Below, one piece after another: positions 7,566 to 60,036 of a stretch of 64,000 bases of DNA. The DNA is from Dehalococcoidia bacterium (GTDB lineage: Bacteria > Chloroflexota > Dehalococcoidia > Lucifugimonadales > Australimonadaceae). Where the stretch lies: positions 1,391,545 to 1,455,544 of the forward strand of contig OZ242348.1 in the NCBI GenBank assembly GCA_965208625.1, read 5' to 3'. A program made the position numbers and the translations under genes. Numbering within the stretch: the stretch's first letter is position 1; every line of letters starts with the position of its first letter. The notes under the pieces were generated by a model. It saw only the letters and a list, made by a program, of their open reading frames with translations. It did no database searches and was not told the DNA's origin.

Positions 7566-10833
<3,268 letters not shown>

Positions 10834-10874
10834 CAGTCCAGAGTTGGTGAGACTTTGTTGACTGGTAGGCACTT

Positions 10875-11010
10875 AGCCTTGTCATGTTGAGCGTAGCCCG
10901 CGCTTCAGCGCGCAACATCCTCTCGGGGGGCGGTGGCATAGGGCGGGCGCTTGCCCGAGAGATTCCTCGGCTCCGCTCGGAATGACAATACAGGGACAGT
11001 CGCCCACCCA
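10875..11010. repeat. cluster of G+C-rich hairpin modules
   Basis: GTCATGTTGAGCG...CCCGCGCTTCAGCGCGC and GATTCCTCGGCTCCGCTCGGAATGAC modules. Confidence 0.65.
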
Positions 11011-11075
11011 CCCTGAACCAACACGCGCCTCCCTGAATCCTCGACGCAAAACCGGAACGGGCGTAACGTAATCCC

Positions 11076-12377
11076 GTGCGCGATTTCCTTGCCCGACGCT
11101 TCGAGTTCTTCGTCGTCCTCCGACGGCGGGACTACCGACGCTACTGGTTCGGCCTCGTCGGGAGCGTCACGTCCCAGCAGGCGCTCATGACCGCCCAGGG
11201 CTGGCTGCTCTACGACATCACCGGCGAGGTCGTCGTCCTCGGGTACGTTGCCGCCGCGCAGGCCGTCCCCGCCATCGTCTTCAACCTCCTCGCCGGCGCC
11301 CTCGCCGACCGGCTCGACCCCCGACGCCTCATCGTCATCGGCGAAGGCGTCGCAACGCTCGTCATCGCGGTGCTGGCGACGCTCGTGCTGATCGGACGGG
11401 TCGAGGTCTGGCACATCGTGGCCTCGGCCTTCCTCATCGGCATCTCGACGTCGCTCGACCAGCCCGCGCGCCGCGTCGTCTGGCCCGCCCTCGTGGAGCG
11501 TCAGCAGTTCATGTTCGCCACAGCCCTGAACCAGGGCGTCTGGAACGGCACCCGTGTCTTCTCGCCGATGGTCGGGGCGATGCCCATCGCCATCGTCGGC
11601 GGCATCACCGGCGACTTCCACCTCGGCGCGGCGGTCGCGCTCTACCTTATCGCGGCGGGCTTCGCCACCATGGCCATCGCCATCGTCACCATCACGCTGC
11701 CGGAGATGCGGCGCGCGACGGGACGCACCGTCCTCCACGACATCGCGGACGGGCTCGGCTTCGTCGTGCGGCACCGCATCTTCCTGCTCCTGCTCATGAT
11801 GAGCTTCGCCATCGGCTACTTCGGACTCTCCTACCAGTGGCTGCTGCCCGCGTTCGCCGCGGACGTCCTGGGGCTGGGGCCGGAGGGGCTCGGCTTGCTC
11901 CAGACCGCGAGCGGCATCGGCGGACTTACGGGCATCTTCCTCTCGGCGTCCTTCGGCCAGCAGCAGAGCAAGGCCTGGATGCTCGGCGGCGGCGCGGGCC
12001 TGCTCGGACTATCCGTGCTGCTCTTCGGCGTCAACGGCGAGATGCAGTGGTACTGGTTCGCCCTCGCCATGGCCGCCGCGAGCGGCGGGCTCTACGCCGT
12101 CTTCCAGACCGCCTCCAACACCCTGCTGAACCTCCTCGTCCCCACGGAGTTCCGAGGCCGTGTCATGGGCCTCCGAGGCGTGATGTGGAGCCTCGCCCCG
12201 CTCGGAGCCCTGCAGGCGGGCTTTGTCGCCCAGTACACCAGCACCCCGTTCGCCATAGCCCTCGGCGGCGGCGCCGTCATCGCCGTCACCATCCTCGCCT
12301 TCGCCTTCAGCGGCCAGGTCCGCTCCATCCACCGCCTCGTCGAAGAAGCCAACGCCCGCGAGGGAGTGAACGCGTAA
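11076..12377 (+). CDS. MFS transporter
   Basis: 433 aa with a GTG start and about 12 TM segments. LADRLDPRR loop motif. Confidence 0.85.
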   Translation: MRDFLARRFEFFVVLRRRDYRRYWFGLVGSVTSQQALMTAQGWLLYDITGEVVVLGYVAAAQAVPAIVFNLLAGALADRLDPRRLIVIGEGVATLVIAVLATLVLIGRVEVWHIVASAFLIGISTSLDQPARRVVWPALVERQQFMFATALNQGVWNGTRVFSPMVGAMPIAIVGGITGDFHLGAAVALYLIAAGFATMAIAIVTITLPEMRRATGRTVLHDIADGLGFVVRHRIFLLLLMMSFAIGYFGLSYQWLLPAFAADVLGLGPEGLGLLQTASGIGGLTGIFLSASFGQQQSKAWMLGGGAGLLGLSVLLFGVNGEMQWYWFALAMAAASGGLYAVFQTASNTLLNLLVPTEFRGRVMGLRGVMWSLAPLGALQAGFVAQYTSTPFAIALGGGAVIAVTILAFAFSGQVRSIHRLVEEANAREGVNA

Positions 12378-20679: not shown

Positions 20680-21858
20680 CTACCGCGCGAGGCCCCACGC
20701 GGCCTGCTCGTTGCCCTGCTCCGCGAGGCGCGATGCCACGGACGCGATGAGGTTCCCCATCGCCGTCTCCGACCAGAACCAGCGCTGCAGCTCATCGTCC
20801 CTGTCGTCAGGGCGCTGCGAGAAGCGGGCCTCGAGGAAGAACGCCTTGAGGTCGTCCGAGGCGAGGCGCAGGAACCGCACGGGCTCCACTCCCTCCGGCG
20901 CACGGTCGTATGCCGCGTCCTCCCCGGCGGCGAACGCCTGCAGGTAGCGCACGAGGCCGCGGAACTGCCGCTGCGGCACGCCGCTCAGCCCGACCATCGT
21001 CCGGCCCTCGTGCTCGTCCACCCAACGTTCGTAGTAACCGCGCAGCGCGGTGACCTCGTCGGCGGGGTCGCCGTCCCGGTTCGCCGCCTCCTCTTGCGCG
21101 GCGCTCGCCTGCAGCAGCACGGGCGGCGCGGCGGCGTCCTCCGGGAACTCGGCGAGCACGGGCGTGTCGTTCTCCGACAGCAGACCCAGCGCGGCGGAGA
21201 GCACCTTCTGCTGGAACGGCGGGTCGTCCGGGTTGCCAAGCGCGAACCCGAACGGGAACGGCACCCAGAGCGTGCGGGGTGGCTTCACTCGCTGGGCGTG
21301 CTCCTTGATGAGCGCAACGGTGACGGTCGGCAGGCCGGCCTCCTCGATGGCGCGCGCGAGCACACTGACCGTGTGCGTGCAGTTCGGTCAGGTCGGCGTC
21401 AGGAAGGCCGCGTCCGCGCCCTCCTCCAGCAACAGGCGTCCGACCTCCGGGCCGGTCTCCTCTTCGATGCGGCGCGGGCTGCGCTGCGCCCCCATGAACG
21501 AGTAGAAGTTCTCCGTCACCTCGCCGATCTCGCCGCGCTCCGCCATCTCCCGCAGCCGGTCGATGGGGAACGTGACGTTGACGTCGCGCATGATGCCCGT
21601 CCGGTCGAACCCGATGCTCATGTGGCTCTGGATGATGCCCGAGGCCGGTGAGGACGACGGGATGACGCGGTACGTCTGGTCCCCGCCGGAGAACGGCACG
21701 TCGTCGCGCAGGTGGAGGCCGGCCGTCGTCACGAGCGCGATCTTCGCCTCGTTCAACGGCTTGGTCATCCGCACGCAGGGCGCGTCGTCGTGGTCGAACG
21801 CAGGGAAGTTCAGCATCCCCTGTCGCGTGAGGTCAGGGAGGTCTTCGAGTCTCGGCAT
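20680..21858 (-). CDS. GrdB/PrdB-family selenoprotein (glycine/sarcosine/betaine/D-proline reductase B-like); UGA 21390..21388 read as Sec
   Basis: Two track ORFs lie in one frame, separated by TGA plus 8 sense codons. The joined protein reads ...FLTPT-U-PNCTHTVSVLARAIEEAGLPTV... and a SECIS-like hairpin follows. Confidence 0.75.
21360..21376 (-). promoter_or_regulatory. SECIS-like hairpin GCACAC-GGUCA-GUGUGC
   Basis: Perfect 6-bp stem starting 11 nt after the UGA. The apical loop begins with GGU. Confidence 0.6.
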
Positions 21859-56190: not shown

Positions 56191-56349
56191 GAACCTCGTA
56201 GGGAGCGCGATCGAAGCTCTTTCGCGATCTTGGCCTCGCAGGGATGCCACGCGGCGAGGAGCTTCCATGCCAACGGTGAGGAGTCCCGGGCACTGGAACT
56301 GTTCCGTGGTCTATTGTTAGTCTTGGGCGCAGAAGAGAGGAGTAGCCGC

Positions 56350-57120
56350 ATGGCCATTGTCAGCGTCGAAATCACGGAACGCGTGCCCTTCGCCGGCGGC
56401 GCGGAATCCGGCGGAGCCCGCCCGTACGAGCGTGTCGACGGGCTGCTGACCCACGCCGTCGACCCCGCGAACCCGGCGAACGTGCTCATCACCGACCTCG
56501 CGCTGGCGCCCCGCGGCGCCGACGGTCTCGTGCGCTTCACGGGCGATTTCACGCTCATCGCACCGGTCGACCGGGAGCACGGCAACGGCGAACTGCTGAT
56601 AGACGTAGTGAACCGGGGACGGCGGCAAGTGATGCCGACCTTCAACATGGCGCCGCCGTCGCGCGTGGGATCGTCGGAGGTCCCCCTCGGCGACGGTTTC
56701 CTCTGCCGCCTGGGTTACACGGTGTTGTCGGTCGGGTGGCAGTGGGACGTCCCGCGCAGTCCGGCGATGATGGGCCTCGAGGCTCCCGTGGCTTTCGAGA
56801 ACGGGAAGCCTGCGACGGGGCAGGTGCTGGTCGAGATCAGGCCCGACGCGCCGCAGCGGACGCGGCTGCTGGCGAACCGCGTCCACAAGCCGTATCCGGC
56901 AGCCGACGTCGACGAGCCGCAGGCCCGGCTGCTGGTGAAGGACTGGGAGGATGGGCCGTACCGGGAGATCCCGCGTTCGGCATGGCGGTTCGCCGCTGGC
57001 AGGGCATTCGGGGGCGGAGTAGTCTTGGGCGCGAAGAGGGTGGTTTGTCGAACGCGGGCAGAAGCCACGGCAGGTGAGGTCATGGCGTTGACCAGCCTGG
57101 TTCGGAAGGGACGGCAATGA
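56350..57120 (+). CDS. hypothetical protein, possibly 3'-truncated
   Basis: ATG 56350 with GAGGAG upstream. The conserved-looking N-terminal two thirds are followed by a low-information tail (GRAFGGGVVLGAKRVVCRTRAEATAG...). The stop overlaps the next start (ATGA). Confidence 0.5.
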   Translation: MAIVSVEITERVPFAGGAESGGARPYERVDGLLTHAVDPANPANVLITDLALAPRGADGLVRFTGDFTLIAPVDREHGNGELLIDVVNRGRRQVMPTFNMAPPSRVGSSEVPLGDGFLCRLGYTVLSVGWQWDVPRSPAMMGLEAPVAFENGKPATGQVLVEIRPDAPQRTRLLANRVHKPYPAADVDEPQARLLVKDWEDGPYREIPRSAWRFAAGRAFGGGVVLGAKRVVCRTRAEATAGEVMALTSLVRKGRQ

Positions 57121-57578
57121 CGGAAACCTACATCGGGAAGACGGTCTCCGATTTCACACTTCAGTCCAGCGATGGAAAGACGATATCCCTTGGCAGCCTT
57201 CGCGGACGGAAGGTCCTGCTGTACTTCTTCACGAGTCCGGGCGGTGGCAACTGAACCCGCATGGCTCTTGGGTACCGAGAGCATGCTGCGGGGTTCACCG
57301 AGAAGAACGTCTTGCTGTTCGGGGTCCATGACGGAAGCCTCGATGCTGCACGACAGTGGGTCGAGAAGGAGCAGCTTCCGTTCGCGGTCCTGAACGACCC
57401 TGACCGGCGAGTAGGCATCGAGTTGGGCATGTCCGCTCTCGATGGAGAAAGGTACGTCAATGACCCCTCAGACGGAAGGAGGCCTGCAGTTGTCATCGAC
57501 GAACACGGCGCGATCTGCGCGTGGGAACCGGACATGAACCACACCGATCAGATCGCACAGTTGCTGGAGCGTCTGTAG
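57117..57578 (+). CDS. AhpC/TSA (BCP)-like peroxiredoxin selenoprotein; UGA 57252-57254 read as Sec
   Basis: ATG 57117 is in frame with track ORF 57261..57578. The product reads ...GRKVLLYFFTSPGGGN-U-TRMALGYREHAAGFTEKNVLLFGVHDGS...LPFAVLNDP. U aligns with the peroxidatic Cys of the TPGCT motif. Confidence 0.75.
57259..57286 (+). promoter_or_regulatory. SECIS-like hairpin
   Basis: GCAUG-(G)-CUCUUGG / CCGAGAG-CAUGC, about 11-12 bp with one bulged G. The apex is GGUACC, which puts G/U 17-20 nt after the UGA. Confidence 0.6.
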
Positions 57579-58863: not shown

Positions 58864-60036
58864 ATGCCACGTCTATCTGGAGCATTCGTTAGGACCGTAA
58901 CCAAGCCCGGTCGCTACGGCGATGGCGGACGGGGCTCGCATGGACTTGCCTTACTGGTCAAACCCACCACAACGGACAGGGTGCCCAAGTCATGGGTGCA
59001 ACGCATCCGGGTCAATGGGCGGTCTACGAACATCGGGCTAGGGCCGTACCCCCTTGTCACCCTAGCACAAGCACGCGAGGTCGCCATCGAGAACACGAGG
59101 GCCGTAAGGACCGGGGCAGACCCTCAAGCCGACCGCAAACGTAAGACGACAATCCCGACCTTCGCCGAGGCAGCCGAAAGGGTCATCGCTCTCTATTCTG
59201 AGAGTTGGAAGGATGGCAGCCGGACTGCGAGGATCTGGCGCTCACGGCTCGCAGAGTACGTTTACCCCGCCGTTGGGCGTTTCAGGATTGACGAGCTCAC
59301 AACCGCCCACGTCCTCAATGTGCTCACTCCGATATGGGCAACCCGGCGAGAGACAGCCCGGAAGGTGCGGCAGTATCTCAATGCAGTCATGGCATGGGCT
59401 GTGGCCCAAGGCTACCGTGAGGACAACCCAGCTGCGGCAGACGTTATCAGCGCGGCGATGCCACGCGCAGGCAACGTGACGCAGCATCACCGAGCCCTCG
59501 GGTATACGGACGTTCCGGCTGCTCTTGCTGGGGTGCAGGCCTCCAACGCCTACGCATCCACGAAGGATGCGCTTGCGTTCCTCGTGCTTACAGCAGCCCG
59601 ATCTGGCGAAGTTCGAGGCGCGACCTGGACAGAGATCGACCTCGATACCGCGACGTGGACCATTCCTGGAGCGCGCATGAAGACAGGGCGCGAGCACCGT
59701 GTCCCGCTATCCAGCGCTGCACTTGAAGTGCTGCATCGAGCCCACGAGTACGCTGACTCGTCCGGCCTCCTGTTTCCGTCCATCAGGGGAAGAGCGCTCT
59801 CAGACAATACGCTGTCGAAGCTACTGCGCGACAACGGAGTCCTCTGCGTGCCGCACGGATTCCGCTCCACGTTCAGGGTGTGGGCCGCAGAGTGCTCTTC
59901 TGCGCCGCGGGAAATCGCGGAGATGGCATTGGCTCACGTCGAGGGCAGTGCGGCGGAACTTGCGTATCGTCGGACAGACTATTTCGAGGCGCGAAGGTCG
60001 CTTATGGAGGAATGGGCAAAGGCCTGCCAGCCTTAG
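58864..60036 (+). CDS. int: tyrosine-type site-specific recombinase (P4-like integrase with N-terminal arm-binding domain)
   Basis: 390 aa. N-terminus ...KPGRYGDGGRGSHGLALLVKPTTTDRVPKSWVQRIRVNGRSTNIGLGPYP. C-terminal catalytic segments HGFRSTF and LAHVEGSAAELAYRRTDY. Confidence 0.9.
   Translation: MPRLSGAFVRTVTKPGRYGDGGRGSHGLALLVKPTTTDRVPKSWVQRIRVNGRSTNIGLGPYPLVTLAQAREVAIENTRAVRTGADPQADRKRKTTIPTFAEAAERVIALYSESWKDGSRTARIWRSRLAEYVYPAVGRFRIDELTTAHVLNVLTPIWATRRETARKVRQYLNAVMAWAVAQGYREDNPAAADVISAAMPRAGNVTQHHRALGYTDVPAALAGVQASNAYASTKDALAFLVLTAARSGEVRGATWTEIDLDTATWTIPGARMKTGREHRVPLSSAALEVLHRAHEYADSSGLLFPSIRGRALSDNTLSKLLRDNGVLCVPHGFRSTFRVWAAECSSAPREIAEMALAHVEGSAAELAYRRTDYFEARRSLMEEWAKACQP

Follow-up and report, generated by a model that had tools for sequence, protein, structure and literature searches.

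Selenoproteins of the peroxiredoxin fold are already documented, as are Dehalococcoidia rich in selenocysteine (Sec). The Sec-containing peroxiredoxin (PF00578, motif PxxxTxxU) was first shown in Eubacterium acidaminophilum by Sohling et al. 2001, as cited in PMC13188914. Prx-like thiol:disulfide oxidoreductases and selenoproteins of the Redoxin family, in which the motif is UxxC or UxxU, were described as Prx-like 1-3 in the GOS study (PMC2398784), and the families listed there and in PMC13188914 comprise Prx with TxxU, Prx-like with UxxC or UxxU, AhpC/TSA with UxxS, Redoxin with UxxC, and Prx-SUH with CxxU. Here we describe a gene at 57117..57578 on the forward strand of a 64,000-nucleotide stretch from a Dehalococcoidia bacterium (contig OZ242348.1, positions 1,391,545 to 1,455,544; hereafter the window). 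Judged from sequence comparison, it is highly probable that this is one genuine and complete selenoprotein gene, which encodes a Prx-like protein of 153 residues with the AhpC/TSA (peroxiredoxin) fold of the BCP/PrxQ-like type, and in which an in-frame UGA at 57252..57254 would be read as Sec at the position of the peroxidatic Cys. The predicted product resembles the PxxxTxxU proteins in its AhpC/TSA domain, in the place of the peroxidatic Sec in the first turn of helix alpha-2, in the catalytic Arg, and in a selenocysteine insertion sequence (SECIS) located directly downstream within the coding region; unlike them, it carries T39-S-P-G-G43-G-N-U46 in place of PxxxTxxU. With the Prx-like 1-3 and Redoxin selenoproteins it shares the thioredoxin fold, matches to PF00578 and PF08534, and a prediction from metagenomic Sec/Cys pairs, whereas the position of their dithiol-type UxxC motif is occupied here by U-T-R-M, and neither a second Cys nor a second Sec is present.

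The layout of the gene can be read directly from the window. A single frame runs from ATG at 57117-57119 to TAG at 57576-57578 and comprises 153 codons plus the stop codon, arranged as 45 codons, the TGA (codon 46, 57252-57254), and 107 further codons; the start codon shares the tetranucleotide ATGA with the TGA that ends the preceding frame. In a mechanical list of open reading frames (ORFs) the gene is represented by two pieces, of 45 residues (57117..57254) and 105 residues (57261..57578). An earlier note on this DNA, made from the sequence alone, had pointed out the 105-residue piece and proposed one joined product of 153 residues. Its coordinates and translation, including the ATGA overlap, all hold on re-reading, and the joined product is borne out by the Pfam AhpC-TSA profile, which, with U read as C, matches residues 6-133 over profile positions 1-121 of 124 (E = 1.6e-19); Redoxin is an additional Pfam match. 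Since the AhpC-TSA match covers both sides of the TGA, the domain runs through this codon. A purine run (GGAAGGGA, 57104..57111, forward strand), found by inspection 5 nucleotides upstream of the ATG, is a possible Shine-Dalgarno-like element, and the stretch is shared with the locus L008 (OY764542.1). The latter shows approximately 93% DNA identity to the window over 43.7-59 kb, and the metagenome-assembled genome (MAG) it belongs to is thus a close relative of the window genome.

The best sequence and fold matches are provided by the Cys-type BCP/PrxQ proteins (E. coli BCP type; PDB 2ywn/4g2e, 3drn, and 5enu) and by the 1-Cys protein AhpE (1xvw), which are alike in size and in the order of secondary structure elements. 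In an alignment of the family profile with PDB sequences (E-value 3e-17 for the BCP/PrxQ match), the Sec column coincides with the peroxidatic Cys in the PrxQ/BCP chains 2ywn and 5enu and with a Ser in 3drn, and the invariant Arg122 with the catalytic Arg of PrxQ/BCP chains (KRAVFVID in 2ywn), at the strand preceding ...VID.... A naturally occurring Cys homologue, P0008 (63% identical), was also modelled with AlphaFold (predicted local distance difference test score 90.8, predicted template modelling (TM) score 0.88). In this model strand 32-37 precedes helix 44-55, whose first turn contains residue 46, and the best Foldseek matches are again BCP, PrxQ, and AhpE, with a TM score of about 0.82. 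As shown by the alignment and the model together, Sec46 would sit at the peroxiredoxin place for the peroxidatic Cys, in the first turn of helix alpha-2 and next to Arg122, in agreement with the earlier note, which had placed the UGA at the catalytic Cys. The differences from the Cys-type BCP/PrxQ proteins are Sec instead of Cys, Leu51 at the +5 position of the resolving Cys, and the loss of the active-site Pro and Thr; no other Cys is conserved in the family.

A search of a collection of 5.8 billion proteins yielded 150 matches. Most of them are exactly 105 residues long and start with MALGYRE, which means that the public entries are cut at the same codon, and the contigs that encode such fragments always contain a 45-residue AhpC-TSA piece followed, 6 nucleotides on, by the 105-residue piece. 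The few full-length matches (153 residues) have Cys at position 46 in P0008, P0009, P0014, and P0016 (...GGNNCTRM...), Arg in one case, and in other cases W, which is the same TGA translated with a different code (thus L025, to which P0025 is identical, has TGA here). Exact look-up of the window's own 105-residue product returned no record. Several of the 105-residue pieces are labelled 'peroxiredoxin' in JGI/IMG, and the NCBI and ENA copies are unnamed, so the suspicion of the earlier note that the gene would be missed or mis-annotated is justified for its orthologues in public data. No selenoprotein-specific NCBIfam model was matched, and the only NCBIfam hits were generic ones, in which the BCP and PrxQ models stayed far below their cut-offs (NF006960, 56.6 versus 140 bits; NF053650, 41.9 versus 260 bits).

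At the DNA level, 23 loci were recovered when a single genome of each GTDB species was scanned, all from MAGs of Dehalococcoidia/Chloroflexota. The aligned codon is TGA in 22 of these species genomes, whose proteins span 53-94% identity, and TGC in the remaining one (L014); the possibility of TGC or TGT at 57252, considered in the earlier note, is excluded by this pattern. When all distinct sequences are counted, those from metagenome loci included, 26 of 26 Sec forms have TGA, three Cys forms have TGC, and a single marine contig (L034) has CGA. The TGA, the N-terminal length of 45 codons, and the hairpin described below are present in every Sec-form orthologue examined. Cys occupies the UGA column in P0008, P0009, P0014, P0016, P0261, L014, L031, and L032; the first six of these, together with the peroxidatic Cys of the PDB BCP/PrxQ chains, confirm that the UGA is aligned with Cys in homologues.

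Further evidence is provided by a bacterial SECIS-like hairpin at 57259..57286 on the forward strand. The earlier note had described it as an 11-12-bp hairpin, and it proved to be real: it consists of a lower stem of 5 bp (GCAUG/CAUGC, 57259-63/57282-86), a bulged G57264, an upper stem of 7 bp (CUCUUGG/CCGAGAG, 57265-71/57275-81), and the loop GUA (57272-74), with an energy of -15.5 kcal/mol. The surrounding 61 nucleotides have a folding energy of -27 kcal/mol (z = -3.4), a stability reached by none of 200 dinucleotide shuffles. The apical loop starts 17 nucleotides past the last base of the UGA, and its G and U are at +21 and +22 counted from the U of the UGA. In the SECIS of E. coli fdhF the corresponding loop bases are G23 and U24, counted in the same way. 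The two elements, and the bacterial SECIS (bSECIS) model in general, are alike in having a hairpin just after the UGA inside the ORF and a small apical loop whose first bases are G and U; they differ in the +21/+22 versus +23/+24 positions, in the size of the loop, which is only 3 nucleotides here (5 if the closing G-C pair opens), in the bulged U of fdhF, which has no equivalent in our hairpin, and in their dissimilar primary sequences. The published bSECIS rules ask for a loop of 3-9 nucleotides in which a G at position one or two precedes a G or U, an upper stem of 4-16 bp, an energy of at most -7.5 kcal/mol, and a distance of 16-37 nucleotides from the UGA (PMC13188914), and every one of them is obeyed by the GUA loop, the 7-bp stem, the 17-nucleotide spacing, and the energy of our hairpin.

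Comparison of the orthologues points to selection on the RNA structure. The upper stem keeps six or seven of its seven pairs in all 26 distinct Sec-form sequences, and the RNAalifold consensus is exactly this 7-bp stem. Among the 24 aligned Sec forms, 87.5% of the cells are paired in the named structure versus 29-51% after a shift of the 3' partners by one to three columns. Two compensatory changes were observed: U-A to A-U in L011 and L029, where a Leu-to-His replacement is matched by a synonymous change of an Arg codon, and C-G to U-A in L026 and L028. The stem codons are nearly frozen (Ala50 GCT in 22 of 22 sequences, Gly52 GGG in 20 of 22, Tyr53 TAC in 22 of 22, Glu55 GAG in 21 of 21), and the mean codon entropy of stem codons 50-55 is 0.43 bits, whereas a comparison set of 56 further conserved codons has 1.42 bits (Mann-Whitney p = 0.0007). 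In contrast, the three Cys forms with available DNA encode a near-identical peptide, yet retain only 3, 4, and 5 of the seven pairs and have the loop CUA. The SECIS geometry claimed in the earlier note is therefore supported not only by the published bacterial rules, but also by covariation and suppressed synonymous variation. In the window, the predicted fold also includes an outer helix (57252..57298, forward strand), in which the UGA region 57252-58 is paired with 57292-98 and which extends the hairpin in this lineage only. It is predicted in the window and L008, and partly in L001, where some of the pairs are broken; it is not found in more distant orthologues, and, as judged from these predicted folds, the conserved SECIS element does not include it.

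Support for the decoding of Sec in this genome is indirect, and part of it comes from outside the window; within the window, it is provided by a second gene with a conserved in-frame TGA, described below. In L015, a tRNA-Sec with the anticodon TCA (ARAGORN; Rfam RF01852, 73.1 bits versus the gathering score of 47) is located approximately 0.8 kb downstream of the Prx-like TGA gene, past msrB. In this locus the Prx-like gene, msrB (SelR domain, 10637-11014, forward strand), and the tRNA-Sec (11263-11356, reverse strand) make up a small redox/Sec cluster which was not observed in the other loci. In BSepDB, two Dehalococcoidia MAGs are among the ten bacteria richest in selenoprotein genes, with 49 and 46 genes, respectively (PMC13326102).

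Several observations weigh against the interpretation of this gene as a peroxide-reducing selenoprotein, and we give them together. First, the protein does not have the PxxxTxxC motif. The earlier note had compared the segment with the ...TPGC... surroundings usual in AhpC/TSA (BCP) proteins and missed the departure from this standard: Pro(-7) is replaced by Thr39 and Thr(-3) by Gly43; both residues are invariant in the family alignments A1 and A3, Cys forms included. Because the Pro and Thr are absent, peroxidase activity can only be inferred. Second, at positions 319-321 of L034, the Tara Oceans marine contig, the codon is CGA (Arg) and the hairpin is intact, with 7 of 7 pairs. A single C/T transition separates CGA from TGA, and the candidate explanations are an inactivating variant, a polymorphism within the population, or an error in the reads. 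Third, the hairpin lies inside the strongly conserved peptide MALGYRE, and part of its conservation is owed to the protein. Rfam contains no matching SECIS family, and a permissive scan of 57150-57400 gave only a chance match to sroE (E = 0.88). Fourth, no tRNA-Sec was found in the window by ARAGORN or at the Rfam gathering threshold, the only tRNA there being a tRNA-Arg; a six-frame search of the window and of L001-L030 did not reveal SelA, SelB, or SelD signatures, although this is a weak negative, made with strict motifs; and most orthologue flanks are without selA, selB, selD, or tRNA-Sec. Finally, the G+C content at third codon positions (GC3) is about 0.72 in the Prx-like gene versus 0.85-0.95 in its neighbours, and, given the low GC3 and a nearby integrase, this genome may have acquired the gene recently.

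The alternative that survives best, although we regard it as improbable, is that the UGA is recoded otherwise than as Sec, either by hairpin-stimulated near-cognate read-through (with insertion of Trp, Cys, or Arg) or by a lineage-specific reassignment of the codon. It could draw on the Sec machinery not being seen within the window, on the public gene calls that give W, and on the single contig with CGA. At that, the stop codons of the 42 strong long ORFs of the window are TAG in 25 cases, TGA in 12, and TAA in 5; since UGA ends 12 of these ORFs, there is no global reassignment. The residue aligned in homologues is a redox-active Cys, which is the hallmark of Sec/Cys pairs, the hairpin has the geometry of a SelB-type SECIS, and a tRNA-Sec stands beside an orthologue in a class documented as selenoprotein-rich. 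These points speak against the alternative.

A second alternative, to which we assign a still smaller probability, is a pseudogene, i.e. a nonsense-truncated peroxiredoxin in which the TGA is a true stop codon and a fragment or nothing is made. Gene callers everywhere treat the TGA as a stop, an integrase is close to the gene, and the window contains another probable nonsense TGA, at 10321 in a haloalkane-dehalogenase-like gene. The same codon is, however, kept in all but one of the 23 species despite the wide divergence of the proteins, the N-terminal part is fixed at 45 codons, and a co-varying hairpin is unexpected in a dead gene. To measure selection, we compared codons 2-45 with codons 59-153 in 22 Sec-form orthologues of identical length, using the proportions of nonsynonymous (pN) and synonymous (pS) differences. 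The pN and pS values were 0.21 and 0.72 for the N-terminal part (ratio 0.30) and 0.19 and 0.78 for the C-terminal part (ratio 0.25), with synonymous sites near saturation across this set. Equal purifying selection on both halves argues against a pseudogene and against the 105-residue piece as the whole gene. It also answers the concern of the earlier note that the upstream 45 codons might be unrelated to the domain: they are the thioredoxin-fold N-terminus according to Pfam, and they are under purifying selection.

Even less credible is the existence of two small genes, in which a 45-residue peptide would be followed by a 105-residue protein produced from AUG 57261 by termination and reinitiation. 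It is true that an invariant ATG is located 6 nucleotides past the TGA, but the Cys forms, in which Met49 is plainly an internal residue (CTRMALGY or CTRMGLGY), preserve it just as strictly, and the 105-residue piece would have neither beta-strands 1-3 nor the catalytic residue. The weakest alternative, a sequencing or assembly error that changed TGC or TGT to TGA, in favour of which is only that the window probably comes from a MAG, is already refuted by the same codon in dozens of independent long-read and short-read assemblies from different samples.

Accepting the gene as a selenoprotein gene, one may ask how it relates to the described families. The family is tight: when 1.84 billion representatives were searched exhaustively with HMMER, only eight reached E <= 1e-30 before the scores dropped to those of generic peroxiredoxins. 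All members seen to date are from Dehalococcoidia. In the closest sister clade, P0262 (SPGGRNCTAHAC), the CxxxxC pair of BCP is retained. In a neighbour-joining tree, which has no support values, the Cys clade, a minority, is nested within Sec-form lineages, which hints that Sec may be ancestral in the family and Cys a reversal. The G-x-x-U/U-T-R-M signature is not among the families of the 2008 GOS study (PMC2398784) or of the 2026 inventory (PMC13188914), and our search of the literature on the exact motif and on Sec-peroxiredoxins of SAR202/Chloroflexota found nothing specific. With no NCBIfam model at its cut-off and the motif absent from the 2026 inventory, annotation pipelines systematically truncate the gene; homology-based selenoproteome pipelines probably still class it as 'Prx'. 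We tentatively suggest, as a possibility rather than a likelihood, a distinct selenoprotein subfamily with the signature FFTSPGG[GN]N-U-TRMALGYRE, to date observed only in Dehalococcoidia, in which Sec would be dominant and apparently ancestral, according to the same unsupported tree, and the Pro and Thr would be lost. If this is true, the protein either can do without the Thr/Pro activation network thanks to the chemistry of selenium or acts on a substrate other than peroxide.

The following mechanism can be proposed from the sequence features. During translation, SelB with Sec-tRNA(Sec) would bind the hairpin just past UGA46 and deliver Sec at this codon in place of release. The selenolate beside Arg122 would then attack peroxide or a similar oxidised substrate, and an external thiol partner would re-reduce the Sec; such a 1-Sec mechanism is suggested since a second Cys is not conserved among the family members. 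Reduction of peroxide or a related oxidant by the selenolate seems the most likely function, and this chemistry is the least certain step because the Pro and Thr are missing.

The window contains a second candidate selenoprotein gene, PrdB/GrdB-like, of 392 codons on the reverse strand (21858..20680), with a conserved in-frame TGA at 21390-21388 in the context ...LTPT-U-PNC..., which is a UxxC motif. The Pfam GRDB match to the N-terminal part of this gene reaches the last position of the profile right at the TGA, and public homologues are split at the same codon into pieces of 156 and 227 residues; full-length relatives, with about 44% identity, carry the name D-proline reductase PrdB. The loop of its hairpin, GCACAC-GGUCA-GUGUGC, is likewise located 17 nucleotides past the UGA. 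Two selenoprotein genes within 64 kb would fit recent reports in which certain Dehalococcoidia rank with the bacteria richest in selenoproteins. In L037 and L038, the PrdB/GrdB-like gene is preceded by a gene for a 143-residue RF-1-domain (ArfB-like) protein.

Other interrupted genes and unusual features were observed in the window and in the orthologous loci. A haloalkane-dehalogenase-like alpha/beta-hydrolase gene (approximately 9960-10833, forward strand) has an in-frame TGA at 10321-10323, with a coding signal (GC3 0.95) on both sides. Its relatives presumably have Arg at this position (HPE-R-VKG), and the TGA is probably a CGA-to-TGA nonsense change, i.e. a pseudogene or a sequencing error, rather than Sec. 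An FAD-oxidase/Fe-S (GlcD-GlpC-like) gene of 967 residues is called in one piece in L003 (4170-7073) and in two pieces, of 882 and 85 residues, in the near-identical L004 (4194-7096). TAG as the commonest stop codon is unusual at 66% G+C, and its preference over TGA may be linked to heavy use of UGA for Sec. ARAGORN predicted a tRNA-Pro(cgg) at 17961-18036 of L011, which is not listed in the Rfam gathering-threshold scan of the same locus. A 95-nucleotide 'tRNA-Pro(agg)' in L023 was rejected as a spurious call within a coding sequence.

No conserved gene neighbourhood was found for the Prx-like gene, the flanks being different among the orthologues. In the window, it is followed by an FAA-hydrolase gene and then, 1.3 kb past the Prx-like gene, by a tyrosine integrase (58864-60036); in L001, the orthologue, which is 88% identical, is surrounded by transposase and resolvase genes. 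Together with the low GC3, these flanks hint at mobility, and lateral movement within the class is plausible on such sequence evidence. Upstream, the Prx-like start codon overlaps the stop codon of an ORF without a Pfam match (56230..57120). Most of this ORF, the segment of approximately 680 nucleotides at 56337-57020 of the window, has no counterpart in L008 (at about position 9923), where the Prx-like gene comes almost immediately after an aldolase gene. As judged from the two sequences, the difference is an indel, whose direction may be either way.

The position of this gene in public data has consequences for the description of the whole class. The public collection contains about a hundred protein clusters deposited as 105-residue 'peroxiredoxin' fragments without the catalytic residue, and inventories of redox defence or selenium use built on such calls are wrong for Dehalococcoidia, an abundant class in soil and marine environments. 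At the same time, the family presents a natural experiment, a site of the peroxiredoxin fold that keeps Sec (or Cys) and Arg but not the Thr and Pro, and it could show how far selenium can stand in for the usual activation network.

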